Source of the DNA: an uncultured Candidatus Saccharibacteria bacterium
GTDB lineage: Bacteria; Patescibacteriota; UBA1384; 2-12-FULL-50-11
NCBI GenBank assembly: GCA_964599405.1
Contig: CAZRED010000002.1
Location: 44,198 to 108,197 of the forward strand
Reading direction: 5' to 3'
Length of the DNA stretch: 64,000 bases
A program made the translations under genes and the position numbers. How positions within the stretch are numbered: position 1 is the stretch's first letter; every line of letters starts with the position of its first letter. A model generated the notes under the pieces. The model saw only the letters and a list, made by a program, of their open reading frames with translations. It had not been told where the DNA came from and searched no databases. Shown one piece after another: positions 1,919 through 23,209 of this stretch.

Positions 1919-1921
1919 ACG

Positions 1922-2191: not shown

Positions 2192-2475
2192 GCACACCGA
2201 AGATCACTATCTACACCACCCACACCTGCCCGTTTTGTAAAATGGAGAAGGCTTTTTTAACGGAAAAGGGTGCCGCCTATACCGAGATCTTTGTGGACGA
2301 TGACGAAGGCAAAAAAGGCGAGATGATTAATATCTCTGGCCAAATGGGTACGCCGGTAACGCGTTTGGCCTACGACGACGGTGAACAGCGCCAGCTGGTT
2401 GGCTTCAATCAAGCCGCCCTGGCTAAGCTTGTGGCCGGCGAAAAAGTTGGTGAGCCGTTAGTCCAACCAGCTTAG
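2188..2475 (+). CDS. glutaredoxin-like protein (NrdH/Grx family)
   Basis: 95 aa with a CPFC redox motif (TCPFCKMEKAFL) and thioredoxin-fold spacing. Translationally coupled to the ATP-cone gene. Confidence 0.7.
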   Translation: MSTPKITIYTTHTCPFCKMEKAFLTEKGAAYTEIFVDDDEGKKGEMINISGQMGTPVTRLAYDDGEQRQLVGFNQAALAKLVAGEKVGEPLVQPA

Positions 2476-3053: not shown

Positions 3054-3112
3054 AGGCTAAGTATATACCACTGGTTCGGTGCGGGGTAATTAATACCTGG
3101 CATAATGTAGTT

Positions 3113-4049: not shown

Positions 4050-5279
4050 ATGCAGAAGGAATTCTTGCAACCTCTTAGTGGCTTCCGCGACTACGCTAAA
4101 CCGACGAAAGATCGGGTGCTTCGAGCTGTCCGTGAAACATTCAGGCGTTACGGCTACCAACCACTAGAGACGCCGTCGATTGAACGGCAAGAAATTCTTC
4201 TCGGTAAGCTCGGCGAAGATAGCCAAAAACAACTTTATTTGTTTGAAGATAACGGTGGCCGGAAAGTCGGGCTGCGCTACGATTTAACGGTGTCGTTAGC
4301 TCGCTACGTGGCCGGCAATTTGGGGGCATTGGCGCTGCCGTTTAAACGTTTTGAAATTGGCGACGTTTGGCGAGCCGAGCGAGCCCAAAAAGGGCGACAA
4401 CGCCAATTTACCCAAGCTGATGCGGATATTATTGGGCTGGATTCACTAGCAGCGGAAGAAGAACTGCTGCGAGTAATCGGCGACGTCGACAAAACGTTGA
4501 AATTGGGCTTGACCGTGCTGGTCAACGACCGCCGTTTAGCCCAAGCGCTACTCGAGAAAATTAACGTCCCGGCCGACAAACAGGCAGTATTTTTGCAGAT
4601 AATTGATAAAGCCAAAAAAGTTGAAGCTGGCGAGCTGGATAAAGAGTTGGGTCGGCTCGGGTTGAGCGATACTCAACTTAAACAAACACGGATGTACTTT
4701 TTGGCTGACAGTGAAGCGGATTTAGAGAAGCTGGACGTGTCGGAGACATTAAAACAACCACTAGAGCAGCTCGTAAAATTAGCCGAAGGCCTCGGCCTGA
4801 GAGCCCGGGTGGATTTGGGGATGGTTCGGGGGCTGGAGTACTATACCGGCACGATAATTGAAGCAGTTGCTGATGATTTCCCGTCCAGCTTGGTCGGTGG
4901 CGGCCGTTACGACAATCTGGTGGAGCAGTTTAACGGCCAAAAAGTACCGGCAGTCGGCATTTCTTTCGGTATTGATCGGATTGTTGACCTGCTCGATAGT
5001 CGCGCCCCTAGCGCCGAACCGGTGTTGTTTATTGTCAATCTGCCGGAAACCAAAAACGAACTAGAGCAGTGGGCCAGCGAGCTACGAGCGAGCGGAACCA
5101 ACGTCGAAATTTATCTGGATGCCAATGTGGAGATGGGCAAACAAATTAAGTACGCCTTCAAACGAGGGTTCCAAGAAGTCTATCTGCCGTTTGAGCCGGA
5201 GTGGCAGCGCGGCGAAGTCGTGGTCAAAGATTTGGAGACTGGCGATCAAAAAGCGGTAGCGCGCGCATCTTTGCAGTAA
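4050..5279 (+). CDS. hisS: histidyl-tRNA synthetase
   Basis: Class II HisRS motifs (LRYDLTVSLARYVA, GGGRYDNL, anticodon-binding C-terminus). ATG at 4050. Confidence 0.9.
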   Translation: MQKEFLQPLSGFRDYAKPTKDRVLRAVRETFRRYGYQPLETPSIERQEILLGKLGEDSQKQLYLFEDNGGRKVGLRYDLTVSLARYVAGNLGALALPFKRFEIGDVWRAERAQKGRQRQFTQADADIIGLDSLAAEEELLRVIGDVDKTLKLGLTVLVNDRRLAQALLEKINVPADKQAVFLQIIDKAKKVEAGELDKELGRLGLSDTQLKQTRMYFLADSEADLEKLDVSETLKQPLEQLVKLAEGLGLRARVDLGMVRGLEYYTGTIIEAVADDFPSSLVGGGRYDNLVEQFNGQKVPAVGISFGIDRIVDLLDSRAPSAEPVLFIVNLPETKNELEQWASELRASGTNVEIYLDANVEMGKQIKYAFKRGFQEVYLPFEPEWQRGEVVVKDLETGDQKAVARASLQ

Positions 5280-10660: not shown

Positions 10661-10800
10661 AAAGAGACGGGAATATTATAGAATAAATTTATTAGCGTAT
10701 CAAGGGATGCGGGGGCGTTTTTTGAAAACGCCTCATAATATTCTTGAGATTCCGACCAGAATCAGTTACAATAACCCGGCCAAATTGGCACAGGAGTATT

Positions 10801-11382
10801 TTGAAGTTTCGCTATTTAACACTTGTCACAACTCTCGTCACTTTGCTTCTCACCATACTAGTCATCGGTTGCGGTGGCGGCGGTGGTGGGAACTCGATTT
10901 TCCGTGGTTCGTGGTTGGGCGCTTGGAGCGACTACTACGAGGAAGATACCGGGTTCTACTCGGTCAACGTCAGCGGTAGCGGCAGTTTCAATGGAACTGC
11001 CACAAACGATCTGTGCGGTAGCTCTGGCTCCGCCACCGGTTCGTTCGGCAACAGCTCGACGAAGTTGAATATGAAGTTCAACGAGAACAACGTTTGCTAC
11101 AAGTACAGCGTTAAGGCCTCGGGCGACCCGATGACCCCATACGCAAACGGGTATTCGACAGTCGTCGATGCCAAGTACTACGACCGATTCGGGACCTATA
11201 TCGGCACCGTTGTCTGGGCGGTCTATATGGAGCGCAACTTTGCGATGGGACCGGACGCCCCAGCCCGGATTACGGTCAAGCAGTTGACCCCCAGGCTTTC
11301 CGGCGGCCAGCCCGTCGACATGAGTGCCATCAAGAAGGGCGACGGCAAACTGCCGAGCCCACCCATCCCCGATTCACCTTAA
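10801..11382 (+). CDS. hypothetical lipoprotein (Cys-Gly6 N-terminus). Start uncertain: TTG 10801 preferred, alternative TTG 10744.
   Basis: MKFRYLTLVTTLVTLLLTILVIGC|GGGGGG is a typical lipoprotein signal/lipobox. AGGAG sits 3 nt upstream of the 10801 TTG. Gly/Ser/Thr-rich mature protein. Confidence 0.45.
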   Translation: MKFRYLTLVTTLVTLLLTILVIGCGGGGGGNSIFRGSWLGAWSDYYEEDTGFYSVNVSGSGSFNGTATNDLCGSSGSATGSFGNSSTKLNMKFNENNVCYKYSVKASGDPMTPYANGYSTVVDAKYYDRFGTYIGTVVWAVYMERNFAMGPDAPARITVKQLTPRLSGGQPVDMSAIKKGDGKLPSPPIPDSP

Positions 11383-11395
11383 CGGTTGATCGGCC

Positions 11396-11433
11396 ACAGG
11401 GCAGTTCCAATTGGAGCTGTCCTGTTATTTTTT
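11396..11433 (+). terminator. rho-independent terminator
   Basis: acagggcag-(12 nt loop)-ctgtcctgt followed by tatttttt. Confidence 0.75.
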
Positions 11434-11504: not shown

Positions 11505-11924
11505 ATGGCTGATGAATCGTTCGGGGTGATACCTTTTAGAAAAACCGAAACCGGGCTAGAGTTCCTGCTCGTTAAACATGCTCAAGGGCATTGGGGATTT
11601 CCGAAGGGTCATCCTATCGGTAACGAATCTCATATTGAGACAGCGTTGCGGGAGCTGAAAGAAGAAACGGGGGTTACTGACTGTAATATAATTGGCGATA
11701 AAACCTGGAAACAAAAATACACAATCGAAAAATCTGGTAATTCTACGGAGAAAATCGTTGAGTATTTTCTTGGCGAAGTACTTAGCGCTAATAAAAATGT
11801 AGACAGTAAAGAAATATTAGAATGTCGCTGGTGCAATTTCGAAGACGCTATAGAACTACTGTCACATCCCGAAAGTAAAGGCATGCTGGAGTCAGTATTT
11901 TCTTTCATAAACCCCAAACGATAA
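11505..11924 (+). CDS. Nudix hydrolase
   Basis: Nudix box GHWGFPKGHPIGNESHIETALRELKEETG (GX5EX7REUXEEXGU). Confidence 0.8.
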   Translation: MADESFGVIPFRKTETGLEFLLVKHAQGHWGFPKGHPIGNESHIETALRELKEETGVTDCNIIGDKTWKQKYTIEKSGNSTEKIVEYFLGEVLSANKNVDSKEILECRWCNFEDAIELLSHPESKGMLESVFSFINPKR

Positions 11925-12790
11925 TGGACATACCGAAAAAGATAAGTGACTTAGGCCTACAGCGAGGCCACTATATTGTAATTGGCAGCGGAGTAATGGG
12001 CGCTCTAAACTTGCGACCAATTAACGACATTGATTTGGTCGTTAACCCAAATAAATATGCAGAACTCAAGAACAGAGATTGTGTTGAAAAAGTTCATGAC
12101 GATGAAACCAGGGAGCTGCTCTTCGGTGTCTACGGAATTAAAACCAGCTGGGACTCACCTAATAGCGGCGATAATTTACAGGAGCTGCTTAGCGATTCAA
12201 TTGAAATTGAAGGTGTTGCGTATATTAGCCCCCAACGCTTACTACGTTGGAAGAAGCGGATGAAACGTGCTAAAGACAAGAAAGATATACTGTTTCTAGA
12301 AAAATTCCTAAATACTCAACAAGACAGATTCACAGAAAAACCAACTTTGTACATAATGTGCGGCTTACCATTTGCTGGTAAATCGAGGTTAGCAAAAGAG
12401 CTAAGCGAAAATCGTGGCTGGAAGGTAGTAGCAGTCGACGAAATTAAAACCAAACGTGGGCTACGTGATGTTTGGCAAGATATGAAACCAGAAGATTGGA
12501 CAGATATTTTTGCAGAGGCAGAGCGTCAAACGGAGAGGGAGTTATTAGGCGGTCGAAGTGTGATCTATGACTCAACTAACCACACCAAACATAGCCGGGA
12601 TAAATTGCGTGAGCTTGCAAAACGTTGCCATTGTTCAGCTAAGTTGATTCTGGTTGATGTGTCTCCTGATGTTGCCGAGTTTAGGTGGAAAGCCAATAAG
12701 GAGTCTGGCGAACGGATGGATTTGCCGGAGTGGGCTTTCCGAACGGCTCTTGGCGACTGGGAACCACCGGTAGGGGATGAGCAGGATTAG
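11924..12790 (+). CDS. fusion protein: minimal pol-beta-type nucleotidyltransferase (N-term) + P-loop kinase of the AAA_33/zeta-toxin/chloramphenicol-phosphotransferase-like class (C-term)
   Basis: N-terminal IGSGVMGALNLRPINDIDLVV (G[SG]…DxD NTase motif). C-terminal Walker A CGLPFAGKS plus DEIK/DSTN kinase-like motifs. The start overlaps the Nudix stop. Confidence 0.55.
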   Translation: MDIPKKISDLGLQRGHYIVIGSGVMGALNLRPINDIDLVVNPNKYAELKNRDCVEKVHDDETRELLFGVYGIKTSWDSPNSGDNLQELLSDSIEIEGVAYISPQRLLRWKKRMKRAKDKKDILFLEKFLNTQQDRFTEKPTLYIMCGLPFAGKSRLAKELSENRGWKVVAVDEIKTKRGLRDVWQDMKPEDWTDIFAEAERQTERELLGGRSVIYDSTNHTKHSRDKLRELAKRCHCSAKLILVDVSPDVAEFRWKANKESGERMDLPEWAFRTALGDWEPPVGDEQD

Positions 12791-13065
12791 ACACAAGACC
12801 GAAAGAGTGCGAACTCAAGTAGGTCTTAGCTTTTAGCGGGCTATCCTAGCGCTCGGGCAAATCCAACCGATAAAACATGTAACGTTTTTACAAAACTAGC
12901 TGAAACCAATTGATTTGTTACTAATATTTCTATAAAATTTCTCTGACTTAGCTCGTTTACATTTTGGCTGACAGGTAACTTTGGGCGGTAAGTGTTATAA
13001 GCAAGAACTGCTTTTAACAAACCGACTTTAGATTCAACAGATTCAGCTGAAAAGGAATCCGCAAG

Positions 13066-14136
13066 ATGAAAAAATTTAACTCTACTTCCCGTGAAATGCA
13101 GGACAATTTTTTCGCTTGCCGAGGTTGGAGGCGAAAAAAATGTCCACACTGTTTCGGAGAATACTACACGAAACGCGACCTACCACACTGCGGCTCTTAC
13201 CTGTGTGCTGGCAGCTATTCGTTCCTTTCTTTCCCTTCGCCAAAGGCACAGCTCGATATGGCGGCATGTGTTCGCAGGCTACAGACGTCCTTCATTGGCC
13301 ACGGCTACCAACTTCACCGACCGATCGCAGTTGTCCGTAATAACGAGCGAACCCTTTTCGCAAGTACGGCTGGCCAGATTTATGACGATCTGATCTACGG
13401 ACAGATATCAGAGAGCAGCTCGAAGTGGCACTTAGTAGTTCAACCGGTGATCCGGTTGCAGGAGATCGATCTCATTAGCTCCATCGACGGGATCTCCAGC
13501 TCGTTCATACATAGTGCAACTGAGTGTTGGAACACTACACAGGGTAACCACCTTGAGACGTTTGATCGCTGGTTGGATTTCTTTTCCGCCCTCGGTCTAC
13601 ATGCGGGCGGTTTCTGTCTTAAGATCGAGCGTGACACCAATAATTGGGCAGGACGCACTATCACGTCAGAGATGCTTCGGGTGCATTACGGTGGGCTTGA
13701 GGTTGGTGTTGCAAATTTCTTTTTCGACATTTCTCAGCCAAACGGTTCCCTGGCGACTCTGAGCGATGTTGGCGTAGGCCTAGAACGATTAATATGGGCC
13801 GTAAACAAATCGCCTATGTATTTGGATAGTATTGGACCTCCCCCGTGTGTTAGAATGCACACGAGGGTAGTGCTCCACGCAATCCGTACGGCGACGCTTA
13901 TGGCGGGTTCGGGTGTTGTGCCAGGTCATAGAAACCATGGGTCAAAGCTTCGCGCTATGATCAGGTTAGTGACAGAGGAGGCACATCATCTCAATCTTTA
14001 CGAACTCGTAAGCCATTACTACCGACAGTGGTCCACATTTGCGGATTATCTTTCGGTACCTCAGGAGCAGGTTTACTTGATAATTTGGGGAGAAATTAAT
14101 CGAGAACTCAGTCTTGGGGCTGACAGGAATCAGTGA
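13066..14136 (+). CDS. truncated alanyl-tRNA synthetase catalytic-core paralog (class II aaRS fold) with an N-terminal Cys-rich insertion. Lacks the tRNA-recognition, editing and C-Ala domains.
   Basis: Colinear with the AlaRS N-terminal domain: NFFACRGW ~ FLDFFHSKGH; RTLFASTAGQIYDDLIYGQ ~ PTLLFTNAGMNQFKDVFLG; LEVGVANFFFDIS…SDVGVGLERLIWAV ~ IEIWNLVFMQFNR…VDTGMGLERIAAVL; LHAIRTATLMAGSGVVPGHRNHGSKLRAMIRL ~ [32 protein letters not shown]. A CPHC…HC…C insertion of about 45 aa sits after the first motif. Confidence 0.6.
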   Translation: MKKFNSTSREMQDNFFACRGWRRKKCPHCFGEYYTKRDLPHCGSYLCAGSYSFLSFPSPKAQLDMAACVRRLQTSFIGHGYQLHRPIAVVRNNERTLFASTAGQIYDDLIYGQISESSSKWHLVVQPVIRLQEIDLISSIDGISSSFIHSATECWNTTQGNHLETFDRWLDFFSALGLHAGGFCLKIERDTNNWAGRTITSEMLRVHYGGLEVGVANFFFDISQPNGSLATLSDVGVGLERLIWAVNKSPMYLDSIGPPPCVRMHTRVVLHAIRTATLMAGSGVVPGHRNHGSKLRAMIRLVTEEAHHLNLYELVSHYYRQWSTFADYLSVPQEQVYLIIWGEINRELSLGADRNQ

Positions 14137-14146
14137 GAAAAACCAT

Positions 14147-14821
14147 ATGAAAACAAAAACCAAACGTATCTTTCTCGGCGGGGGTGGGGATGCAGAGGAC
14201 TCGAAGCTTATTGATGAACAATTCGTCAAGAGCATTGATCCATCAAAACCTACCATATACGTCCCTAACGCTATGCCCTCAGAGGGCTATCAGTCCTGCC
14301 TGGACTGGTTCCGACCAACAATGAAGGCGCTCGGTATAGCTACAATCGAAATGTGGGAGGATCTTCTCCCCCACCGCCCAATCAACGACATATCTGGGAT
14401 TTACATCGGAGGAGGCGATACGGTGAAGTTGCTAGATGAAATTCGTACCGCTGGCTTTGATCAGTACCTCTCCCAAGTAGCGCAAAGTGGCATCCCGTTG
14501 TACGGTGGTAGCGCTGGTGCGATTGTCTTTGGCGAGGACATTAGAACCGCACCAGAAGCGAGCCACCTAACACCAGGTGATGCAAAGGGACTTAGGATCC
14601 TAGTAGGTCACTCAATCATGTGTCACTACGAACAGCAAGATGAGACGCAAGTCCGGACACTCCAAAAAACAATTGGGATGCCAATCATTGCTATTCCCGA
14701 AAAAGCCGGTGCATGCATCGAGGGAAAAACACTGACGAATTACGGCTCAGTTCCGCTGTATATCTTCCGGGACAACGAGGAAACAGGGCTAGACACAGGA
14801 GAATCCCTTGAACTCGAATAA
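14147..14821 (+). CDS. peptidase family S51 protein (peptidase E / cyanophycinase-like class I glutamine amidotransferase-like fold)
   Basis: IYIGGGDTVKLL…YGGSAGAIVFGEDIRT parallels PepE IVIVGGGNTFQLL…YIGWSAGANLACPTIRT (Ser nucleophile motif). ATG at 14147 chosen; an upstream TTG at 14114 would overlap the preceding gene. Confidence 0.65.
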   Translation: MKTKTKRIFLGGGGDAEDSKLIDEQFVKSIDPSKPTIYVPNAMPSEGYQSCLDWFRPTMKALGIATIEMWEDLLPHRPINDISGIYIGGGDTVKLLDEIRTAGFDQYLSQVAQSGIPLYGGSAGAIVFGEDIRTAPEASHLTPGDAKGLRILVGHSIMCHYEQQDETQVRTLQKTIGMPIIAIPEKAGACIEGKTLTNYGSVPLYIFRDNEETGLDTGESLELE

Positions 14822-14828
14822 CAAAATT

Positions 14829-14868
14829 GGGGGTGTATCACTTAGCGTGCGTACACCCCCTTCTTTTT
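14829..14868 (+). terminator. terminator-like hairpin immediately upstream of the MAT start codon
   Basis: gggggtgta-(14 nt)-tacaccccc followed by ttcttttt. The RBS AAGGA and the ATG of the next gene lie within 10 nt downstream. Confidence 0.55.
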
Positions 14869-14875
14869 AAGGACA

Positions 14876-16123
14876 ATGTCTTACTCCTTTGGACCAAGCG
14901 CAATTAAAAAAGGAAACCTGACTGTATATTCCCGTAGCCCGGTCTGGGACAGTGAGTTCGAGACAATTGAAAGAAAAGGAATCGGGCATCCAGATACTAT
15001 AGCCGATATTTTAGCTAGTAAAGTAAGTCAGGAGTATTCGAGGTATACCATTACACATTGTGACAAGCTCGTTCTTCATCACCAGGTAGATAAACTCATG
15101 ATTATTGGTGGAAAAACTAAAGTCTATTTTGGCGGAGGGGAGTTCACTGAGCCAATTCGTATTATTGTTGCCGGTAGAGCAACATATAACTACAAGAACC
15201 TGGCTATCCCCGTTGAAAATATTGTGCTTAATACAATTAAGGCATATTTTCTGAAACATTTCCCGATGGTAAATCCAGAAGAAGATTTAGTTATTGAGAA
15301 TAGACTCACTACGTACCCTGGACCAGGAACAATCACAACATCGGCGGGTGCTATTGCTAGGATGTTTAATCCTAGAACCGCGAAAGAAGTAAGAGGGTAC
15401 GAAAAATATGTAGCAAATGACACTTCTTACTGCATCTCTTATTATCCTTATTCTTCGCTCGAGACGGCCGTCCTTGGACTGGAGTCTTATTTACAGTCAC
15501 TACAAATTAAGAAAAAGTTTCGGTGGATTGGCTCGGACGTCAAGATAATGGCAGTAAGGAATGGCAACAATGTGGAAGTAACTATGTGCATTCCACAAAT
15601 ATCCGGACAAGTAGAGTCGCTTAATAACTACTGGGAAAACTTAGAAATAATCAGCCCGCTGGTTAACGAGTTTCTTAATAAGAAGTGCCCAAAGTATGAT
15701 TTTAATATCTCTATTAATACAAAGGACGATTACGAGAGGTTCAACGTCTACCTAACTTACACCGGGGCATCGTTATCGGGAGATATTGGTGTGGTTGGGC
15801 GTGGCAACAGAACTAACGGACTCATTACTTCCAACCGGCCGATGAGTGCAGAAGGTACAAATGGTAAAAACCCAAGATACTATTCAGGATTTATATATGG
15901 CGTACTAACAAAACAAATATCGAAGGCACTATTCGATAAGTTGGGGAAACCTGCCGTAGTTGAGATAGTCTCTCAAAACGGGGGGAATTTATTAGAACCT
16001 TGGGAGGCAAGAATCGTTTGCGAAGCAGATCCAAAGAAAATCCAGAAGGTATATGAGTCTTGTTTGAGTAAAATACCCCGTATTACAACAGACTTTATTC
16101 GGGGCAAGATTGTGAATTACTAA
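14876..16123 (+). CDS. archaeal-type S-adenosylmethionine synthetase (methionine adenosyltransferase, PF01941 type)
   Basis: Near-colinear with M. jannaschii MAT: [13 protein letters not shown]; [24 protein letters not shown]…IVAGRAT; [14 protein letters not shown]; [20 protein letters not shown]…[28 protein letters not shown]. Not the bacterial MetK fold. Confidence 0.85.
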
Positions 16124-16130
16124 TACAGGT

Positions 16131-16622
16131 ATGAAGTACCAACCCCTTTTGCGCCACATCGAGATAAAGAGATCCGCTAGAGACGAAGACCTGGCGATAG
16201 TAGTTTTTAAACCCTCATGTCCCCGTGAGGCGATAGCCCGGTTTAGGAGTTATTGCTCAGAGAACCATATCAGTATTTTGCAAAAGAAAGAGACCCTACT
16301 CTCTCGAGATGCTGTTGTCGCTCTTTACCCTAAAATCTTTTCGTTTTCCAATGAGGATCTGAAATTTGGACTCGCTTGGAAGAAACAAACGATTGATTAC
16401 CTAACTTCTGCGCCGAGCAGATGTTTCTTAGTAGGGGGAGAAGATGTTTATAGTAAGTTGTCAAAATATAAATACCGCCTTCGTGACCGGTATGGAAAAA
16501 TTACCCATCCTAAGGCAGTTTTATCTACTGAAGATTTTTTTGAAAAAGTTATAAAAAACATCGTTCATGTTATTGATGAGCACGAGCTCCAAAACGGTCT
16601 CTGGGTATTATTTGATAACTAG
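16131..16622 (+). CDS. nucleoside-diphosphate-kinase-fold protein (divergent NDK-like)
   Basis: AIVVFKPSCP ~ NDK FSIIKPNAV; NIVHVIDE at the position of the catalytic NxxHGSD His; overall length and spacing match the NDK fold. Confidence 0.45.
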   Translation: MKYQPLLRHIEIKRSARDEDLAIVVFKPSCPREAIARFRSYCSENHISILQKKETLLSRDAVVALYPKIFSFSNEDLKFGLAWKKQTIDYLTSAPSRCFLVGGEDVYSKLSKYKYRLRDRYGKITHPKAVLSTEDFFEKVIKNIVHVIDEHELQNGLWVLFDN

Positions 16623-17131
16623 CGGCTATTCTTAATAAATTCTTTGATGACTTGAATGTCCCGGAGCTGTTTTTCTCCATGTAGATAGCTCTTATACCGG
16701 ACCATCTTGTCTGGCTTCATCAATTTCAATCTCTTCCCAGCCCAGTTAACAGGATATGTGTCATTCAAACTGTACCTGAAGATTTTCCACTCAGAACTTG
16801 CATCGTCAAAAATTTTTTGTGAGTCCCCATTGGTTAGTTCTATTATTTGACCTTTATAATTCAAAGCCATCATCAGAACTACCCACTCGCTGTCTATATA
16901 CAATTCTGGCCCAAATTGCACAAATTTCCCAACTTTTTTGAGCAAGCGAGGAAAATCTTTCTCTTGTATATCAATATCAATGTCGTTAATTGGTCTGTCG
17001 GCACCGTAGAAGCGTGCGGCCACTCCGCCCAAGACTTGGTATGGGATATTCTCTTCTTCTAGAATAGAGATGATCCACTTCAGCGCCACGTTAACTCGTG
17101 GAGTTAGGCTGATGGGGCTTAATTCAAGCAT
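16619..17131 (-). CDS. small-molecule nucleotidyltransferase of the Lnu(A)/lincosamide-nucleotidyltransferase-like family
   Basis: YQVLGGVAARFYGADRPINDIDIDI resembles LnuA YWLDGGWGVDVL…HRDIDIDF; about 170 aa, as in that family. Confidence 0.6.
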   Translation of the reverse strand: MLELSPISLTPRVNVALKWIISILEEENIPYQVLGGVAARFYGADRPINDIDIDIQEKDFPRLLKKVGKFVQFGPELYIDSEWVVLMMALNYKGQIIELTNGDSQKIFDDASSEWKIFRYSLNDTYPVNWAGKRLKLMKPDKMVRYKSYLHGEKQLRDIQVIKEFIKNSR

Positions 17132-17154
17132 CTTTTTATGCCATAATCATTACA

Positions 17155-17652
17155 ATGTTTAAAGGGTTGGAGCAAATCAATACTAGCAGTAACGCTAATC
17201 AAAACTTTGCGTTAGTCCTCCAGCTAACGGAGAAGATAGATAACAATGCAGACGCTTCATCGGTTATCAATGAGCTGATAAAAATATACTGGGATTTAGA
17301 CGGAGTCCCTCGCTACCATATAATAGTAAGTTTTATCGAGCATAACCGTACAGACGTATTAGGATTCCTTAAAAAGGTTTTATCTGAAGACACAAGCGAA
17401 CTGATCCGTCATGAGGCCGCTTTTGGTATCGGACAGATGGGAGACTCTACGCAACAGTTCGCACTAGCCGATTCTCTTAAGAACGATACTTCAGCTATTG
17501 TACGTCATGAAGCCGCTATTGCGTTAGCAACTGTTGGAAGCCGGCAATCTATAGGAGTCCTGCAAGAAGTAATAAGTGACGCTAGCGAAGAAGAAGTAGT
17601 GACTGAGTCGGCCGAGTATAGCCTCCGTCTGATTATAGAAAGTAGTAAATAA
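17155..17652 (+). CDS. HEAT/PBS-lyase-type repeat protein
   Basis: Two tandem repeats IRHEAAFGIGQMGD / VRHEAAIALATVGS typical of HEAT-like (PBS lyase) repeats. Confidence 0.55.
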   Translation: MFKGLEQINTSSNANQNFALVLQLTEKIDNNADASSVINELIKIYWDLDGVPRYHIIVSFIEHNRTDVLGFLKKVLSEDTSELIRHEAAFGIGQMGDSTQQFALADSLKNDTSAIVRHEAAIALATVGSRQSIGVLQEVISDASEEEVVTESAEYSLRLIIESSK

Positions 17653-17658
17653 AAATAA

Positions 17659-17687
17659 GGCAACCACATAATGTGGTTGCCTCTTTT
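17659..17687. terminator. bidirectional rho-independent terminator between convergent genes
   Basis: ggcaaccaca-taa-tgtggttgcc with T-rich runs on both sides. Confidence 0.75.
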
Positions 17688-17697
17688 GGGTTGTCTG

Positions 17698-18765
17698 TTA
17701 CCTCCCAGCGATAAAGTCCTCGACTTTCTGCCTGGCTATCCCCAGTGACACTAGGTGCAGTGGGTGTTTGAAGAAGTAGGCGCTCCAATCCTGGTAGCCA
17801 GAGAGGTTTCTGTCTAACGATAGCTTCATAGCGCGAACTGCATCAACCATCACTCCAGCGTTGTTTGGGGAGTCTTCGACTGACATCTTCATCTCAATCT
17901 CAAAGGGGAAGTCACCAAACTGCCTTCCCTTGATATTGATGTAAGCAATCTTATTATCGCCGAGGAATCGTATATAGTCAGCCGGGACTACCTTTATGTC
18001 CTCGGTGCCAGCTTCGAAGATGATTGGATCGGTCTTTGACACCTTCTTCGAAGTAAGACGCAGATGATCTGTGAGGTTGTCAAAATCCATATTCCCACCT
18101 ATGTCCAGTTGGTAGGAATTCTCTACGATTTGTCCACGCTCGCGGACTAGAGATACGAGTGTTCGGTGAAGGATAGTGGCACCAACCTGGCTTTGGATGT
18201 CATCCCCGGCGCACGGAATACCGGCTTGCCTAAACTTCTCCGCCCAGACTGGGTCGGATGCAATAAATTCAGGCACGCCGTTTATAAACGCAACTCCTGC
18301 GTCAAGACAGGCTTGGGCGTAAAACCGCGTCGCTTCCTGTGACCCTACCGGCAAGAAAGAAATACAAATTTCCGTATCGCTCTCTCTAAGTTTCCTGACA
18401 ACAGATTCCGGCTCTTCTCGGAGGGGGAAGTACTCACGCATATGCGGTGCAATTCCATCTCCAATAAAACCCGCCTCAACTGCTACGCCATATGTAGGCA
18501 CGCAAGCGAACTTATGGGAGTTCGTGGGCAACACCCAAATAGCTTCGGAAATGTCTTTGCCAATTTTATTAGCGTTTACGTCGAAAGCGGCAACTACCTG
18601 TATATCTGCAATGAGATATCCGCCAAAGTCATTGTGCATGAGGCCCGGTATGGGAGGTGATGTTTGGCCAACGTCCTTATAGTACTCGAGGCCCTGGATG
18701 AAGGAACTGGCGCAATTTCCCACGCCAACGATTGCGATTTGAATCTTTTTGTTTTTTCTAGTCAT
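17698..18765 (-). CDS. myo-inositol-1-phosphate synthase family (NAD-dependent cyclitol synthase)
   Basis: N-terminal Rossmann IAIVGVGNCASSFIQG (cf. GxGGNNGST); GDDIQSQVGATILHRTLVSLVRERG ~ MIPS GDD(I/L)KSGQTK…; SYQLDIGGNMDF ~ SYNHLGNNDG. Confidence 0.65.
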   Translation of the reverse strand: MTRKNKKIQIAIVGVGNCASSFIQGLEYYKDVGQTSPPIPGLMHNDFGGYLIADIQVVAAFDVNANKIGKDISEAIWVLPTNSHKFACVPTYGVAVEAGFIGDGIAPHMREYFPLREEPESVVRKLRESDTEICISFLPVGSQEATRFYAQACLDAGVAFINGVPEFIASDPVWAEKFRQAGIPCAGDDIQSQVGATILHRTLVSLVRERGQIVENSYQLDIGGNMDFDNLTDHLRLTSKKVSKTDPIIFEAGTEDIKVVPADYIRFLGDNKIAYINIKGRQFGDFPFEIEMKMSVEDSPNNAGVMVDAVRAMKLSLDRNLSGYQDWSAYFFKHPLHLVSLGIARQKVEDFIAGR

Positions 18766-18944
18766 TGTCTTTTCCTGTAAAGGTCCAGGGAGCGGTTCTC
18801 CCTTATGGTTTGGAATTCTACAGTTTTGTTAATTGATAATCAATACAATAACTGGTGATTCTAAAAATTATTTATCAAGTAGTTGATTAAGAGCTATCTG
18901 GTCGTGCAAGTCTTGCTTACGATCCTAAATATGGGCATAATATC

Positions 18945-18973
18945 TTGACTCTTCTCGAGAAGTGTGGTATAAT
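18945..18973 (+). promoter_or_regulatory. sigma70-like promoter (TTGACT-17 bp-tgGTATAAT, extended -10) for the GNAT gene. Predicted near-leaderless transcript.
   Basis: -35 at 18945-18950, -10 at 18968-18973 with a TG at -15/-14. The ATG at 18988 lies about 8 nt from the predicted TSS with no SD. Confidence 0.55.
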
Positions 18974-18987
18974 TTTAGCTCGAGTGA

Positions 18988-19593
18988 ATGCACATGAACA
19001 GAATCAACTTTAGACTCGCAAGAGGGGAAGAAGAGCTGTATGAAATATTAGCTCTGCGGTATAGAATCTTTGCGCTCGAAAAGGGGTGGATCGCAACGAA
19101 CCCAAGTGGCATTGACTTTGACCAGTGGGATTTCGCAAGCAGCCACCTTTGTGCCGTGGATGAATCTGGCAAGGTACTTGGTACCATGAGATTGATTCAC
19201 AATTCGCCCTTCGGATTCCCTGGTGAAGCCGCTTGTCCGTGCTTAATTGGTTCGTCGAAAGATCGGACTTATGAAGTATCGAGACTTGCTGTCGAGGAAC
19301 AGGAAAGAGGAAGACGCTCGCTAATCCTTATTGGTCTCTGCAGGTTAGTGCCTAGACTGGCAAAACTGCACAAGATTGATGATTGGATTGTGGTAGTGGA
19401 CAAGCCGGTTGCAAGAATTCTGAAAGGCCTAGGTTTCAACTTTGACTTCACTGGAGAGGTTGTTGACCATTTGGGATCACCGTGCGTTCCGTTGAGATGC
19501 ACCATGACCGAGGCAAGAAGAGTTCTATACCAGCCAAACTTATCGGAGCTTTTGGCAACTCACATCGAGGAAGCCTATGAGACTATCGAATGA
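18988..19593 (+). CDS. GNAT-fold N-acyltransferase of the autoinducer-synthase/FeeM N-acyl-amino-acid-synthase-like family
   Basis: LRYRIFALEKGW…VSRLAVEEQERGR pattern typical of PF13444 / exosortase-associated N-acyl amino acid synthases. Confidence 0.55.
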   Translation: MHMNRINFRLARGEEELYEILALRYRIFALEKGWIATNPSGIDFDQWDFASSHLCAVDESGKVLGTMRLIHNSPFGFPGEAACPCLIGSSKDRTYEVSRLAVEEQERGRRSLILIGLCRLVPRLAKLHKIDDWIVVVDKPVARILKGLGFNFDFTGEVVDHLGSPCVPLRCTMTEARRVLYQPNLSELLATHIEEAYETIE

Positions 19594-19600
19594 CCCATGA

Positions 19601-19625
19601 CGGCCGCATTACTGCGGCCGTTTTT
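19601..19625 (+). terminator. rho-independent terminator
   Basis: cggccgca-ttac-tgcggccg followed by ttttt. Confidence 0.8.
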
Positions 19626-19661
19626 GTTTAGATTTTTATCTCTAGGTGGTACTTTGGAAAT

Positions 19662-20465
19662 ATGGAAATATTTAATTATTCAGATTTTACACAGAGAAAC
19701 ATTGGAATAATATCCGTTTCTGATCAAGAAAAAGTGCGAACCTCTACGATCGCAATTGCAGGATGTGGGGCAGATGGTGGAGCACCCGCTATATCACTAG
19801 CAAGACTCGGCGTTAGTAATTTTAGGCTAGCAGATCCAGATGTTTTTGATTACAGCAATATTAATAGGCAGGAAGGTGCATTTACTGACACCATTAATAC
19901 GAAGAAAGCAAGGGAGATTGAATTAATAATAAAAAAAATAAATCCAGAGGCTAATGTCACAATCTACACAGAGGGTATTAATGAAGACAATGTGAATGAG
20001 TTTATTGAAGGGTCAGATATCGTCTTGGACGAGATAGACTATAGAAAGCCAAAGTATGCGCTTCTATTACACATAGTGGCGAGGAAACTGAATATCCCAG
20101 TAATTACTACTGTATCAGTTGGGTGGAACGCTTTTCTTTTCTATTTTGATCCATCTGGACTCACGTTTGAGGAGTACGTAAAAAAGGAGCCTCTTTCTGT
20201 TGAAGATAATTTTGAAGTAAACCCTTCTGCTTACGCACCAGAGTTACCCTCATATATTTCTGAAGAACTTTTAAAGGATATACTTTCAGAAAAAGTGGAG
20301 ATACCAGTTGTAGATCCCGCTGTTAGATTGGCGTCTGCACTAGCAAGCTCCTTTTGTATTTTTTGGTTGACTGGCGCAAAGAAGATAATGGCTGTTCCCC
20401 ATTATTACTCGGCGGGTGATTTATTACTGAAGCAGGAAAGCTTTAATAATTTGCGTAGGTCTTAA
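19662..20465 (+). CDS. ThiF/MoeB/E1-like adenylyltransferase (stand-alone, 267 aa)
   Basis: Rossmann nucleotide-binding motif IAIAGCGADGGAPAISLARLGV. No rhodanese, E2 or peptide-clamp domain, and no adjacent ThiS/MoaD-like ORF. Confidence 0.75.
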   Translation: MEIFNYSDFTQRNIGIISVSDQEKVRTSTIAIAGCGADGGAPAISLARLGVSNFRLADPDVFDYSNINRQEGAFTDTINTKKAREIELIIKKINPEANVTIYTEGINEDNVNEFIEGSDIVLDEIDYRKPKYALLLHIVARKLNIPVITTVSVGWNAFLFYFDPSGLTFEEYVKKEPLSVEDNFEVNPSAYAPELPSYISEELLKDILSEKVEIPVVDPAVRLASALASSFCIFWLTGAKKIMAVPHYYSAGDLLLKQESFNNLRRS

Positions 20466-22756
20466 TGGACGGACTGATTCTGTATTTGATTCTGGCATTC
20501 TTTGTCGTGATGAATTTGGTTTTGGGTTTGGTAGTTTTAAGAGCTGACTCAAAATCGGCTACCAATCGCCTTTTCGCCGGCTTCATCCTTTCGGTACTTG
20601 CTTGGCTCGTCACCAATGCAGTCGCTGATGCATCGGCGACTGCGACACTAGTTACCAGTTGGACTAAAATAACCATGGCCTCAGCGGCAAGCATTCCCTG
20701 GCTGCTACTACTTTTCACTTTAGTTTTTCCAACGAACGAGAAGTTAAGTAGAAAAACCATAATTCTACTGACCGTTCCTTATATGTTGGTGGCGCTTTTG
20801 TCCCTATTTACGGGACAAATTATTCAATCAGCAATATCAGTGGATAATGTAACACAGGTTACTTTTGGAAACTTAATCATTCTTTACGCAGCGTTCCTGT
20901 TGTTTTACGCGTGTTCATCCGTTTGGATACTAATACGAAAATTTAAACGTGCTGTGGGTATAGCACGGGCACAGATCGCATACTTTCTATTAGGCTTATC
21001 GCTTTTTATCATTTCTGCGTTAACAACTAATCTTATTCTCCCGGTAGTATTTCAAATCTTTTATTTAACCCCCTTTGGTTCGCTAACTACGGGGTTCTTA
21101 CTGGGGTTCACTGCTTACGCAATTGTTAGACATGGGCTCTTTAACATAAAAGTAATCTTAGCGCAGATTGCCGTCGTGTCCTTGGTGTTGGTAAACGGAA
21201 TCCAGTTATTCGAATCAGATAGTGTTGGTAACTTAGTTTTAAGGTCCGCAGTGTTTATTTTAGTCGCTGGGTTTGGGTACCTCTTTGTTAGGTCTGTGAT
21301 TAATGAGGTCAAAAGAAGAGAAGAGGTCGAGAAGCTTGCTCAAGAAAAAATAGAAGCACTAGGAGAATTGGAGCTTCGAAATAAAAACTTAGCGACACTG
21401 CAACAGATATCCGACATTGTTCTGAATGAAAACGATACAAAACAAATGGTTCAGAAGATTTTAGACGAAATTCCCAAGCAACTTGAATCATGCGTCAGTG
21501 GTCTGCTCTCGATTGTTAAAGACGGCAAACTAACGGCATACGCGATTAGCAGGAACAACCTATCACAAAAAGTCGTGGCAATGATCGGTGGGAGCTTGGA
21601 TAAGTATAGTTTCCCAATCAAGAAAGAATATAACCGGATTCACGAGGCGCTGGTGGATAAAAAGTCGATCGACTCGGATAATCTGACCGACTTTATCTCC
21701 CCGCCGATTCCTAAGGCTGTGGCTGCTTCCATTCAAACGTTAATCGGCGCCAAACATATTGAAGTGTTCCCGCTCTATGCTGGTGGTGAGCCACTAGGGG
21801 TAATGTTGTTTGTCTTTAATAAACCCGGCGCCGAAGTACATGAGAAAAACTACGCCATTGCCAAAGCAATTTCCGATGACTTGAGTTTGGCGGTACAACG
21901 AGCTCAAGCTTTTGAGCAGTTACAGGCGGCCAACGAGTATTTAGCCCAGCTGGACAAGATGAAAGATGAGTTCATCTCTATGGCCTCGCACGAGCTGAAT
22001 ACGCCGCTGGCGGCCATCGAGGGCTACCTGTCGATGATTCTGGACGAGAACATGGGCAAGATCGATAAACAAAGTCGCACCTACCTAAACCGGGCTTACG
22101 CCAGTTCCAAGCGCCTAGCAGAGTTGATTCTAGACTTGTTGAACGTCTCCCGAATTGAGCAAGGCCGGCTGAAGATGAAGTATGAAGAAATCTCCGTCGC
22201 CGAAATGGTGGAAAGCGTTATTCACGAGCTGCAAATTAAAGCCGACGGCAAAAAAATCTATCTAAAAACCGCCTTCGCCAAGGATTTGCCGAAAGTTTGG
22301 TGCGACCCCGACCGAATCCGGGAAGTGATCGTTAACCTGACCGGTAATGCCATTAAGTTTACGGACAAAGGCGGCATTACTATCAAGGCTAGCCAGCCAG
22401 ACGCCAAAAATATCCGTGTCCAGGTAGTCGATACCGGCCGGGGTATTGCCAAAGAAGACCAGCCCAAGCTCTTCCAGAAGTTCTCTCAAGTCAAGCGGGA
22501 AGTGGACGAGCACCAAGGCAGCGGTCTGGGACTCTACATCAGCAAGAACTTTGTGGAGCTGCATAACGGCAAGATCTGGGTGGATAGCGAAACCGGCAAG
22601 GGCGCGGCCTTCAGTTTTGAGCTGCCACTGATTAAAGAGCCGCCGAAAGAAGTGAAAGGGGCAGTACTGGAAGGACCGTTGAGCGCGCCACGGATTGAGC
22701 GAGGCAACCCAATGGAAGTGCCGACCGGCATTAAAGAGTCGGCGAAGAAAACTTAA
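20465..22756 (+). CDS. sensor histidine kinase (polytopic N-terminal sensor, coiled coil, HisKA + HATPase_c)
   Basis: About 8 TM helices in the N-terminal 290 aa; H-box SMASHELNTPLAAIEGY; N, G1 and G2 boxes (NLTGNAIKFT, DTGRGI, GSGLGL). Confidence 0.8.
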   Translation: MDGLILYLILAFFVVMNLVLGLVVLRADSKSATNRLFAGFILSVLAWLVTNAVADASATATLVTSWTKITMASAASIPWLLLLFTLVFPTNEKLSRKTIILLTVPYMLVALLSLFTGQIIQSAISVDNVTQVTFGNLIILYAAFLLFYACSSVWILIRKFKRAVGIARAQIAYFLLGLSLFIISALTTNLILPVVFQIFYLTPFGSLTTGFLLGFTAYAIVRHGLFNIKVILAQIAVVSLVLVNGIQLFESDSVGNLVLRSAVFILVAGFGYLFVRSVINEVKRREEVEKLAQEKIEALGELELRNKNLATLQQISDIVLNENDTKQMVQKILDEIPKQLESCVSGLLSIVKDGKLTAYAISRNNLSQKVVAMIGGSLDKYSFPIKKEYNRIHEALVDKKSIDSDNLTDFISPPIPKAVAASIQTLIGAKHIEVFPLYAGGEPLGVMLFVFNKPGAEVHEKNYAIAKAISDDLSLAVQRAQAFEQLQAANEYLAQLDKMKDEFISMASHELNTPLAAIEGYLSMILDENMGKIDKQSRTYLNRAYASSKRLAELILDLLNVSRIEQGRLKMKYEEISVAEMVESVIHELQIKADGKKIYLKTAFAKDLPKVWCDPDRIREVIVNLTGNAIKFTDKGGITIKASQPDAKNIRVQVVDTGRGIAKEDQPKLFQKFSQVKREVDEHQGSGLGLYISKNFVELHNGKIWVDSETGKGAAFSFELPLIKEPPKEVKGAVLEGPLSAPRIERGNPMEVPTGIKESAKKT

Positions 22757-22792
22757 CTTGAAAATAAGGGGAGATTTGCTAGGTTTATTACG

Positions 22793-23209
22793 ATGACCGA
22801 AACATTCAAAAGCATCTTATTAGTGGACGACGACCTGACACTGCGGGAGATGTACATGGAGCGTCTGAAGGCCGAAGGCTTCACTGTGGAGATGGCTAAA
22901 GACGGCGAGGAAGCTCTAGCCAAAGCCGCCGATTTGCAGCCAAATATTATCTTACTTGATATTATGATGCCGAAAATTAACGGACTGGATGTGCTGAAAA
23001 AACTCAAACAAGACAGTGCTACTTCCAGCATTCCGGTCATTGTCTTAACGGCGTTAATCCAAGACCGCGAAAAAATGGAGAGCATCACCCGCGGTGCCGA
23101 TGACTATATTGTTAAATCAGAAACCATGCCGGGCGATGTGATTCAAAAAATTAAAGCTGTTCTCGACCACCCAAAAGCTCACGATCAGACCGAAGGAACT
23201 AAGGAGTAG
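22793..23209 (+). CDS. stand-alone response-regulator receiver domain protein
   Basis: ILLVDDD…ILLDIMMP…K motif set of CheY-like receivers. No output domain. Confidence 0.8.
   Translation: MTETFKSILLVDDDLTLREMYMERLKAEGFTVEMAKDGEEALAKAADLQPNIILLDIMMPKINGLDVLKKLKQDSATSSIPVIVLTALIQDREKMESITRGADDYIVKSETMPGDVIQKIKAVLDHPKAHDQTEGTKE

Follow-up and report, generated by a model that had tools for sequence, protein, structure and literature searches.

What does the AT-rich island at positions 11505-20465 of this 64-kb stretch of DNA (contig CAZRED010000002.1; the whole stretch is called the window below) encode, and do its genes serve a common purpose? The island is foreign DNA in the chromosome of a bacterium of the Candidate Phyla Radiation (CPR, Patescibacteria). 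A sequence-only reading had placed eleven open reading frames (ORFs) in it, all of which were confirmed with the same boundaries, and had proposed an undescribed small-molecule pathway or a nucleotide-based system. The region does hold a dedicated system of aminoacyl and nucleotide chemistry that is laterally mobile and has not been described, and gene context bears this out for a subset of the genes. The island carries a horizontally mobile metabolic module with a core of three genes, encoding an S-adenosylmethionine (SAM) synthetase (MAT), a truncated paralog of alanyl-tRNA synthetase (AlaRS) and a serine hydrolase of family S51. This core is a conserved cross-domain unit, found in CPR bacteria and in DPANN archaea. 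About half of the eleven genes are only neighbours of the module. The core genes are:

13066-14136, plus strand: core gene 1, truncated archaeal-type AlaRS paralog
14114-14821, plus strand: core gene 2, S51 serine hydrolase (PF03575, E 1.7e-22; start at 14147 according to a gene caller on an identical contig)
14876-16123, plus strand: core gene 3, archaeal-type MAT (PF01941, 322 bits, E 7e-96)

The comparison covers about 50 related loci (labelled L001-L050), among them 35 metagenome loci gathered with a profile of the AlaRS-like protein; the neighbouring ORFs were clustered. The closest genomic relatives of the MAT come from a Microgenomates bacterium (61% identity) and a Woesearchaeota archaeon (57%), and the AlaRS-like and S51 genes adjoin it in both. 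MAT is present in 34 of 42 loci, and all loci without it stop at a contig edge, as does every locus that lacks one core partner; where the contig runs far enough, MAT adjoins the AlaRS-like gene. The S51 gene always neighbours the AlaRS-like gene and lies directly downstream of it in most loci. In four cases the two are fused into a single protein of ~607-622 aa (L018 and L030, with 607-614 aa, L049 and P0042), and these fusions establish a functional link between them. The triad is also found in an Aenigmarchaeota metagenome-assembled genome (MAG), in L048-L050, and it is kept in the most divergent member, P0070, which has 29% identity and an archaeal context.

The module is laterally mobile between CPR bacteria and DPANN archaea. 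An identical AlaRS-like protein within a near-identical cassette is surrounded by unrelated flanks in L004 and L005. A large serine recombinase adjoins the cassette in L005, L006 and L028, and the cassettes of L005, L011 and L014 have a GC content of 0.52-0.55 in flanks of 0.35-0.47. No relative turned up when 2.9 million viral contigs were scanned by profile as a check for a viral origin.

The AlaRS-like protein starts with an N-terminal zinc ribbon, followed by a catalytic core of class II and by no more than the first helices of the tRNA-recognition domain; it has neither an editing domain nor a C-Ala domain. It is 356 aa long in the window and 391 aa in relatives, compared to 739-906 aa for archaeal AlaRS. 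Its match to PF01411 (19.1 bits) stays under the gathering cut-off of 30.3, but the AlaRS core named by the sequence-only reading is confirmed by a profile of 27 family members, which matches the archaeal AlaRS structures 2ztg, 2zze and 3wqy from the Protein Data Bank (PDB) over residues 11-274 (E ~4e-22), and by an AlphaFold2 (AF2) model with a predicted local distance difference test score (pLDDT) of 88.5 and Foldseek template-modelling (TM) scores of 0.76-0.79 to 3wqy and 2ztg. The profile match covers the zinc ribbon, and the helical tRNA-recognition region aligns weakly. Because the ribbon is part of the match, it is ancestral, and the “Cys-rich insertion” seen earlier is the N-terminal zinc ribbon of archaeal AlaRS itself.

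Nine residues (C26, C29, C42, C47, R130, F147, D234, E240 and R241) are invariant in the 27 family members. The residues for adenylate formation are among those kept: the motif-2 Arg R130 (E. coli R69), the adenine-stacking Phe (F147), D234 (D235), the Asp holding the alpha-amino group, and E240 and R241 of motif 3, R241 being the Arg of “GLER”; E. coli positions are assigned by motif. The alanine-pocket strand reads EIGVANFF in this family versus EVATLVFM in archaea. Overall, the protein resembles an enzyme that is active in adenylate formation and whose substrate pocket has changed. The family is rare: among 5.8 billion proteins it forms 71 clusters at 90% identity, almost all unnamed or “hypothetical”. 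The window protein and its closest relative, P0002, are without the last ~35 residues present in nearly all others (391 aa), and a 275-bp non-coding gap lies upstream of the window gene.

The S51 protein belongs to the PepE/cyanophycinase family with a class-I GATase-like fold (PF03575, 80.6 bits against a cut-off of 23.9). Its catalytic triad S133, H171 and E196 is invariant in 27 family members, and the GGSAG elbow aligns with PepE structures. It stays under the NCBIfam equivalog cut-offs for PepE (52.6 versus 156) and for cyanophycinase (35.4 versus 126.6). The MAT matches PF01941 with 321.9 bits (cut-off 27) over residues 18-411 and aligns over its full length with the MAT structures of P. 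furiosus, M. jannaschii, T. kodakarensis and S. solfataricus (E 7e-59). Its catalytic motifs GHPD, ANDTS and GDxGxVGRGNR are kept, which marks it, on sequence grounds, as a bona fide archaeal-type MAT. Catalytic residues are intact in all three core proteins. The MAT belongs to a distinct clade of ~100 clusters at an identity of at least 45%, followed by a gap to at most 40%.

In one contig (L045, 9934-11171) the module MAT is broken into fragments; a second contig with the same AlaRS-like protein has it complete, at 415 aa. Both contigs sharing this protein carry a second S51 paralog ~3 kb downstream.

The remaining genes of the island, and the signalling genes that follow it, are:

11505-11924, plus strand: Nudix hydrolase (PF00293, E 1.9e-18), a recurrent accessory
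11924-12790, plus strand: fusion of a minimal nucleotidyltransferase (NTase, residues ~1-135) and an AAA_33/KTI12-like P-loop kinase (residues 142-282; AAA_33, E 1.4e-18)
16131-16622, plus strand: ORF163, separated by 7 nt from the MAT gene and conserved in the sub-lineage of the window
16619-17131, minus strand: small stand-alone NTase (NTase170) with the motif LGGV...NDIDIDI and a weak PF14907 match
17155-17652, plus strand: HEAT-repeat protein (HEAT_2, E 1.2e-20), lineage-specific
17698-18765, minus strand: enzyme of the myo-inositol-3-phosphate synthase (MIPS) family (PF01658, E 3.8e-27), a recurrent accessory
18988-19593, plus strand: FeeM/LuxI-like GNAT (FeeM/Autoind_synth match) with its own promoter-like site and terminator
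19662-20465, plus strand: stand-alone ThiF/E1-like adenylyltransferase (PF00899, E 5.7e-31; GC 0.383)
20465-23209, plus strand: 7TM histidine kinase and response regulator, of mildly low GC, possibly associated

Pfam reproduced the earlier domain calls for Nudix, AAA_33, Peptidase_S51, AdoMet_Synthase, HEAT_2, Inos-1-P_synth, the FeeM/Autoind_synth GNAT and ThiF. The two NTase calls are based on the G[SG]...DxD motif, which can be read in the sequence (IGSG...NDIDLVV in the fusion protein), and on very weak Pfam matches. NTase170 is a paralog of the N-terminal domain of the fusion protein and is conserved in the sub-lineage of the window, with homologues in L045 (52% identity) and L049 (71%), the former showing a weak match (E 0.018) to aminoglycoside 2''-adenylyltransferase. 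The kinase domain of the fusion matches KTI12 (E 3e-11). The MIPS-family protein scores well with PF01658 (95 bits, cut-off 27) and over its full length with TIGR03450 (377 bits), below the equivalog cut-off of 638 of the latter; it may be a MIPS-family enzyme acting on another sugar phosphate.

ORF163 has homologues at the same position in L045 (53%) and L049 (51-71%). It had been described as having the fold of nucleoside diphosphate kinase (NDK). In favour of this, a pairwise BLASTP comparison with E. coli Ndk gives E 0.002 and places NIVH146VID on NGTH118GSD, with the catalytic His aligned; against it, no Pfam match is found even at E <=5, nor any PDB sequence match. The AF2 model made without an alignment (pLDDT 42) is unusable for fold comparison. 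ORF163 may be NDK-like.

Among the accessories, a dTMP-kinase-like (Tmk-like) kinase, below the equivalog cut-off, occurs in 13 loci. MIPS is found in 13 loci plus L002 and L049, in three different arrangements, and a radical-SAM (rSAM) enzyme with a SPASM domain in ten loci plus L046-L048. The AAA_33 kinase recurs in L033, where a homologue (30% identity over 151 aa) stands directly beside the AlaRS-like gene. Nudix genes are also near the module in L030 and L050, the one in the window reaching no NCBIfam equivalog. His_Phos_1 proteins are present in L002 and L042/43, a TobZ-type carbamoyltransferase with an amidohydrolase in L001 and L050, and further loci encode APH, PfkB and dNK kinases or an HD nucleotidase. 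The nucleotide-handling genes near the core are interchangeable, and they are accompanied by either MIPS or the rSAM/SPASM enzyme. In the sub-lineage of the window, the order AlaRS-like, S51, MAT, ORF163, NTase (minus strand), MIPS (minus strand) is kept in L049 and partly in L045. L049 is the closest relative (MAT 74%, MIPS 80%, NTase 71% and AlaRS-like 54% identical).

Conservation of the gene neighbourhood, proposed as a check in the sequence-only reading, is strong for a subset of the genes: the AlaRS-like, S51 and MAT genes are present in every related locus, and MIPS, P-loop kinases, Nudix, ORF163 and NTase170 recur, but HEAT, FeeM-GNAT and ThiF do not. Together with the histidine kinase, these three are absent from L049. 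Apart from the same-contig locus L003, HEAT and FeeM-GNAT have no homologue in any other module locus, and for ThiF a single match, 28% over 86 aa in the Rossmann region of a longer ThiF in L004, was found in other module loci. HEAT, FeeM-GNAT and ThiF are co-resident cargo of the island and not parts of the module. Because these genes are missing from L049 and the other loci, the earlier analogies with MccB/ThiF of microcin C and with FeeM find no comparative support, and no aminocyclitol tailoring genes recur that would speak for an aminocyclitol pathway.

The same MAT clade extends beyond CPR and DPANN organisms. In the cultured myxobacterium Hyalangium rubrum (L046, JAXIVS010000008.1, 252343-273593, in a 470-kb contig), the set comprises an rSAM/SPASM enzyme orthologous to that of CPR bacteria (41% identity), MAT, an ATP-grasp enzyme of RimK type, a Tmk-like kinase, a B12-dependent radical-SAM enzyme (B12-rSAM) and an ATP-grasp_5/CoA-ligase, encoded next to MbtH, thioesterase, CmlA and hybrid polyketide synthase/non-ribosomal peptide synthetase (PKS-NRPS) genes; this locus contains neither an AlaRS-like nor an S51 gene. 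One of the Hyalangium ATP-grasp enzymes weakly resembles inositol-trisphosphate kinase. In an Ardenticatenaceae MAG (L047, JACKBS010000034.1), APH, a Tmk-like kinase, rSAM/SPASM, MAT and GT2 are enclosed by an nSTAND NTPase of 1741 aa, a Metallophos-NB-ARC-TPR protein and an integrase of phage type, a setting that looks like a defence island. From these two loci, the deeper invariant is this MAT with nucleotide-handling and radical-SAM partners, and the ligase slot is filled by different enzyme families. As non-homologous ATP-grasp ligases take this slot in Hyalangium, the job of the AlaRS paralog would be ligation onto a metabolite.

The reading that we favour, tentatively and with somewhat less than even confidence, is that the module makes and processes a small molecule in which an amino acid is conjugated to adenosine or a SAM-type compound, through an undescribed pathway. 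Its chemistry is drawn from domain families and analogy. MAT would supply SAM as a scaffold or co-substrate, or would shield the producer from a SAM look-alike. Kinases and phosphohydrolases would carry out “cryptic” phosphorylation and dephosphorylation, a feature typical of nucleoside natural-product pathways. The AlaRS paralog would transfer a small amino acid onto the nucleoside, either via its own aminoacyl-adenylate or from Ala-tRNA in the manner of AcmF. The S51 hydrolase would remove or proof-read the aminoacyl group (pro-drug release, immunity or editing), and MIPS or the radical-SAM enzyme would provide a further building block or modification. This reading is supported by the fact that the core stays strictly linked in two domains and over great evolutionary distances, by the fusions, the mobility, the catalytic residues and the dedicated MAT clade, and by three precedents discussed below: AcmF, the sinefungin pathway and minimal clusters such as that of 4'-thiothymidine. 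A further AlaRS-like/peptidase pairing in L050, where an AlaRS-like paralog lies beside an S66 peptidase, also counts for it.

This second L050 paralog (minus-strand region 489-3801, ~10 kb from the main module) is far more divergent, has 373 aa and no zinc ribbon. It reads “GFGIET” where the motif-3 “GLER” is expected, and because of this replacement adenylation has probably been lost, as in AcmF. Its neighbours encode a 375-aa unknown protein, the S66 (MccF-family) peptidase and a methyltransferase.

Several points weigh against a conjugate-forming pathway. The window variant has no radical-SAM enzyme, no transporter and no gene that stands out as a resistance copy of a target enzyme. It is not evident why a ligase would be fused to a hydrolase that destroys what it makes. 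Some of the adjacency may be operon packing, because the Tmk-like kinase, MIPS and Nudix are also ordinary housekeeping genes in small genomes, and the MAT could be the sole SAM synthetase of the cell. To our knowledge, CPR and DPANN organisms are not known as producers of secondary metabolites. Finally, the parallel with sinefungin discussed below is one of logic and not of orthology, because the B12-rSAMs of L004 and Hyalangium are only 22% identical; a sinefungin orthology through this enzyme was considered and is not claimed.

A bolder form of the conjugate reading, which we consider improbable, starts from the fact that SAM is an adenosine bearing an alpha-amino acid and is thus a natural look-alike of an aminoacyl-adenylate. 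The AlaRS paralog might have been re-tooled to use SAM itself and, with the fused S51 hydrolase, to give a new class of aminoacyl-SAM metabolites (or SAM-charged tRNA or inositol), serving CPR and DPANN episymbionts as an antimetabolite or signal towards their hosts and shared by lateral transfer. If true, this would be the first dedicated secondary-metabolite pathway common to the CPR and DPANN radiations.

CPR and DPANN organisms represent a large share of microbial diversity and are thought to be host-dependent with minimal metabolism; their specialised small molecules are barely known. A rare, linked and sometimes fused cross-domain module is a concrete and testable candidate for such chemistry, and the Hyalangium rubrum cluster is an experimentally tractable relative. 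If the conjugate reading is true, the module would be the second independent case, after AcmF, of an AlaRS re-purposed for small-molecule aminoacylation, here with the adenylation residues intact, and would provide a compact enzyme set for amino-acid-nucleoside conjugates.

PADLOC, the NCBIfam names and literature searches yielded no known defence or biosynthetic system with this gene combination, as the sequence-only reading had held. The kind of pathway proposed is known, a nucleoside-amino-acid conjugate pathway with a paralog of an aminoacyl-tRNA synthetase (aaRS). New are the gene composition, the descent from archaeal AlaRS with adenylation residues kept, a MAT that is obligatory, the fusion to S51 and the occurrence in CPR and DPANN organisms. 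The nearest parallel is ascamycin biosynthesis in Streptomyces sp. 80H647, in which AcmF, a truncated AlaRS-like protein with aminoacylation and tRNA-recognition domains, alanylates a 5'-modified adenosine (PMC12945691). The acceptor, an adenosine derivative, occupies the adenylate site, and the hydrolase AcmE removes the alanine (PMC12945691). AcmF has lost the residues for ATP and alanine activation (N219Q, D232E) and needs Ala-tRNA (PMC12945691). Both systems thus pair a truncated AlaRS-like protein with a hydrolase. By comparison with the published description of AcmF, the module family is set apart by keeping R130, D234, E240 and R241, and because these activation residues are kept, unlike in AcmF, the paralog may form its own aminoacyl-adenylate. 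The module family also derives from archaeal AlaRS with a zinc ribbon, and its partner is S51, sometimes fused, whereas AcmE is a secreted alpha/beta hydrolase. Unlike AcmF/AcmD/AcmE, the module has no sulfamate genes, always comes with MAT and resides in CPR and DPANN organisms instead of actinomycetes.

Sinefungin is a SAM analogue made by the cluster sinA-G and sinR, with a radical-SAM enzyme and with a kinase and a phosphatase for cryptic phosphorylation (bioRxiv 10.64898/2026.05.21.726688). Its Ala-tRNA-dependent ligases append alanines, thought to be cut off later by peptidases, and natural phosphatase-ligase fusions exist in some clusters (bioRxiv 10.64898/2026.05.21.726688). These ligases are PEARLs (LanB-like) and not aaRS paralogs, the core of the pathway is B12-rSAM, arginase and ACAT, none of which is in the window, and the sin cluster has no MAT, MIPS or S51. 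Of the sinefungin-type set, the window has a kinase and Nudix only, and no rSAM, arginase or LanB-like gene. L004 does have a B12-rSAM and an arginase near the module, a likeness by gene family and not by comparison with the SinC/SinR sequences.

In mycothiol biosynthesis, Ino1 is a MIPS, MshC is a CysRS-paralog ligase acting through an aminoacyl-adenylate, and MshD is a GNAT. MIPS-derived inositol, an aaRS paralog ligating an amino acid to a small molecule and a GNAT would be shared elements, but no MshA glycosyltransferase or MshB deacetylase is present here, and the paralog of the module is class II and AlaRS-derived, whereas MshC is class I and CysRS-derived. Only about a third of the loci with the module carry MIPS, the GNAT does not recur with it, and MAT and S51 have no counterpart. 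The 4'-thiothymidine cluster thmA-C consists of a radical-SAM enzyme, a nucleoside kinase and an NTPase (PMC12691670). Like the viperin-kinase pairs, it resembles the module as a compact mobile cassette of rSAM, nucleoside or nucleotide kinase and NTP-hydrolysing enzyme. The window, however, has no rSAM, the rSAM of the module bears a SPASM domain and reaches no equivalog, and those clusters are without MAT, aaRS paralog and peptidase.

Microcin C combines ThiF-type adenylation by MccB with the S66 immunity peptidase MccF, which cleaves the aminoacyl-nucleotide bond. The likeness lies in aminoacyl-nucleotide chemistry with a serine peptidase, in the ThiF gene of the island and in the S66 gene beside the AlaRS-like paralog of L050. 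Yet ThiF is not conserved with the module, whose peptidase is S51 and not S66; no precursor peptide and no MccD/E-type genes were seen, although no search was aimed at a precursor peptide.

An alternative that we judge unlikely is that the module acts on tRNA. The paralog would dock the acceptor stem and charge a tRNA with a non-standard amino acid, or use SAM on the 3' end; S51 would replace the editing domain in trans or in cis, and the RNA end would be the target of the KTI12/PSTK-like kinase, the NTases and Nudix. The family retains the first recognition-domain helices, and DxxRT..L....G..P...N.G..LR aligns to the AlaRS motif ADHxR...DGVxPSNxGRGYVLRR. With the AF2 model, the alignment to archaeal AlaRS extends over ~425 columns, recognition domain included, and in the fusions S51 occupies the position of the AlaRS editing domain. 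The KTI12 match of the window kinase points the same way, the KTI12 family being related to the tRNA kinase PSTK. AcmF is itself tRNA-dependent (PMC12945691). Against this, the residue at the position of the Asn that reads G3:U70, which we take by motif to be N303 in E. coli, is His in most members, and the recognition domain is partial, the window copy being shorter still at its C-terminus. No tRNA gene is consistently linked, and MIPS, the rSAM, the carbamoyltransferase and the ATP-grasp substitution in Hyalangium are left unexplained.

The sole recurrent ARAGORN call is an 83-nt element with a four-base anticodon (cgaa) in six loci (L004 and L005, both 11201-11283; L006, 3797-3879; L009, 2574-2656; L019, 984-1066; L011, 2591-2673), read as tRNA-Ser(cga) in L011. 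The element begins the S51 gene's 5' part, directly behind the AlaRS-like stop codon, and is absent from the window. As it is S51 coding sequence and the cassettes concerned are near-identical, the call is probably a repeated false positive, and it was rejected as a linked tRNA gene.

We think it rather improbable that the module serves anti-phage defence, with a modified nucleotide or SAM kept available in the manner of viperin and its kinases and with MAT refilling the SAM used by the rSAM or destroyed by phage SAM lyases. The third-best NCBIfam match of the module rSAM is indeed prokaryotic viperin (77 bits), with MoaA also among the matches, and both act on NTPs. Tmk-like kinases and Nudix/NTPase genes recur, the Ardenticatenaceae set has its NTPase, NB-ARC and integrase neighbours, and the cassette is mobile and patchy like defence islands. 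The viperin score, however, falls far short of the cut-off of 180, viperins have no SPASM domain, the window variant is without any rSAM, and the fusion of AlaRS paralog and peptidase is left unexplained. In PADLOC-DB 2.0, no match was found for the AlaRS-like protein, S51, MAT, MIPS, the kinase or ORF163; ThiF gave generic E1-domain matches, and HEAT and Nudix marginal ones. The lack of relatives in the viral contigs was counted as neutral for this explanation.

Ordinary metabolism of a reduced genome is, in our view, just as poorly placed. The archaea-derived MAT would then be the SAM synthetase of the cell, S51 a scavenging dipeptidase and the AlaRS paralog degenerate or auxiliary, the genes travelling together as co-acquired. 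The host is a CPR bacterium, the flanks are housekeeping genes, and no bacterial metK, ndk or alaS was found within the 64-kb window, which is a part of the genome only. Elsewhere, too, the module neighbours are often housekeeping genes (SerRS, ThyA-like, dNK, DnaA, DnaX), and the MAT looks fully functional. The AlaRS-like family, however, is too rare to be a general CPR/DPANN solution, the linkage is kept down to 29% identity, across domains and with fusions, and the cassette is compositionally foreign in several hosts. The fragmented MAT of L045 shows that the gene is dispensable there, and in the myxobacterium, a member of a group that has bacterial MetK, the MAT of this clade is an extra gene beside a PKS/NRPS cluster. 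The mosaic of housekeeping substitutes, offered as an alternative by the sequence-only reading, does not hold for the core triad, because these three genes move together between domains and into contexts of foreign GC. If the mundane explanation were true, the locus would show how reduced genomes supply SAM synthesis.

It is very improbable that all eleven genes form one microcin-C-like or aminocyclitol antimetabolite pathway, with an MccB-type ThiF and with GNAT and NTases for tailoring and self-resistance: they do lie within one compositional island, and ThiF, GNAT and histidine kinase genes are also found few genes from the module in L004/L007, but ThiF, FeeM-GNAT and HEAT are without homologues elsewhere, save the short Rossmann match, L049 runs from MIPS straight into dnaX, the FeeM gene has its own signals, and the 267-aa ThiF is an E1 domain alone with by far the most deviant composition.

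The island itself is real and was correctly seen as AT-rich, with GC, GC3 and codon use all deviating from the flank genes. In 1-kb windows the GC content is 0.395-0.48 at 12-22 kb compared to ~0.51 in the flanks. Against 34 flank genes (GC mean 0.506, sd 0.026; GC3 mean 0.568, sd 0.055), the GC z-scores are -3.2 to -4.7 for Nudix (-3.7), MAT, ORF163, NTase170, HEAT and ThiF (-4.7), with GC3 z-scores from -1.7 (NTase170) down to -4.5. The codon-preference z-score is lowest for ThiF (-5.1), the most deviant gene of the island, which suggests a separate acquisition. The AlaRS-like, S51 and MIPS genes have a GC content near that of the host (0.49) and deviant codon use (z -1.9 to -2.9). Because of this difference from the strongly low-GC genes, the island is called compositionally mosaic.

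At the left edge, the gene GC falls from 0.549 (10744-11382) to 0.410 (Nudix) across a terminator, which had been noted before, like the signals around the FeeM-GNAT gene. A mild GC dip extends across the genes for histidine kinase and response regulator as far as 23.2 kb. The signals are:

11396-11425, plus strand: terminator-like hairpin at the left edge of the island (13-bp stem with 7 G-C pairs, then a T-run)
17657-17683: bidirectional terminator
18945-18973: promoter-like site before FeeM-GNAT (11/12 matches, plus TG)
19599-19622: terminator after FeeM-GNAT

Overall, promoter- and terminator-type sites are no more numerous than in shuffled controls. A search for att-like direct repeats bordering the island found none, and Rfam and tRNA scans of the window gave nothing. 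The flanks encode HisRS, IleRS, DnaX, PcrA, MetRS, LigA, GatB and PilB, and the best named relatives of LigA are from Patescibacteria, Berkelbacteria and Saccharimonadales; these housekeeping flanks show the window to be a piece of a CPR bacterial chromosome. The contig of the window was also found in run SRR6868922 and was recovered again, through the AlaRS-like protein, as locus L003; an exact match to the MAT protein was looked for and not found.

The 7TM histidine kinase has full-length relatives (24% identity) in L022 (16077-18248) and L040 (7201-9384), and the kinase of L004 (13633-15273; L004/L007) is 40% identical, mainly in the kinase core. Such a gene stands near the module in three different arrangements, with L049 as a locus without it, and could be a regulator of the module or a mere syntenic neighbour. 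A conserved outer shell of ThiF, GNAT and histidine kinase, hinted at by L004/L007, was rejected, the homology being too weak and the genes absent from L049. Downstream in L004 (15355-21176; also in L007), genes for an arginase/agmatinase-family protein, a long ThiF-family protein, a GNAT, a GARS-type ATP-grasp enzyme, a SAM decarboxylase and an EamA transporter are found. With the B12-rSAM upstream of the cassette, this neighbourhood has a SAM/polyamine flavour and recalls the sinefungin gene set. Genuine aaRS genes (HisRS, IleRS, SerRS, class II tRNA-synt_2 of AspRS type, class Ib of Trp/Tyr type) lie ~3-10 kb from the module in many loci, for example at 4050-8155 in the window, 1778-4393 in L004, 3818-5062 in L035, 10680-13291 in L049 and 2040-3356 in L022.

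Outside the island, a second low-GC gene (53338-54519, minus strand; GC 0.430, z -2.9) encodes a family-2 glycosyltransferase with a chitin-synthase-like region and was probably acquired laterally. Within the island, a perfect 20-nt inverted repeat, GACCAATTAACGACATTGAT, is present at 12015-12034 and 16976-16995. In both NTase genes, paralogs of opposite strand that have otherwise diverged, this repeat codes for the RPINDID active-site motif; it could reflect gene conversion or be a substrate for recombination.

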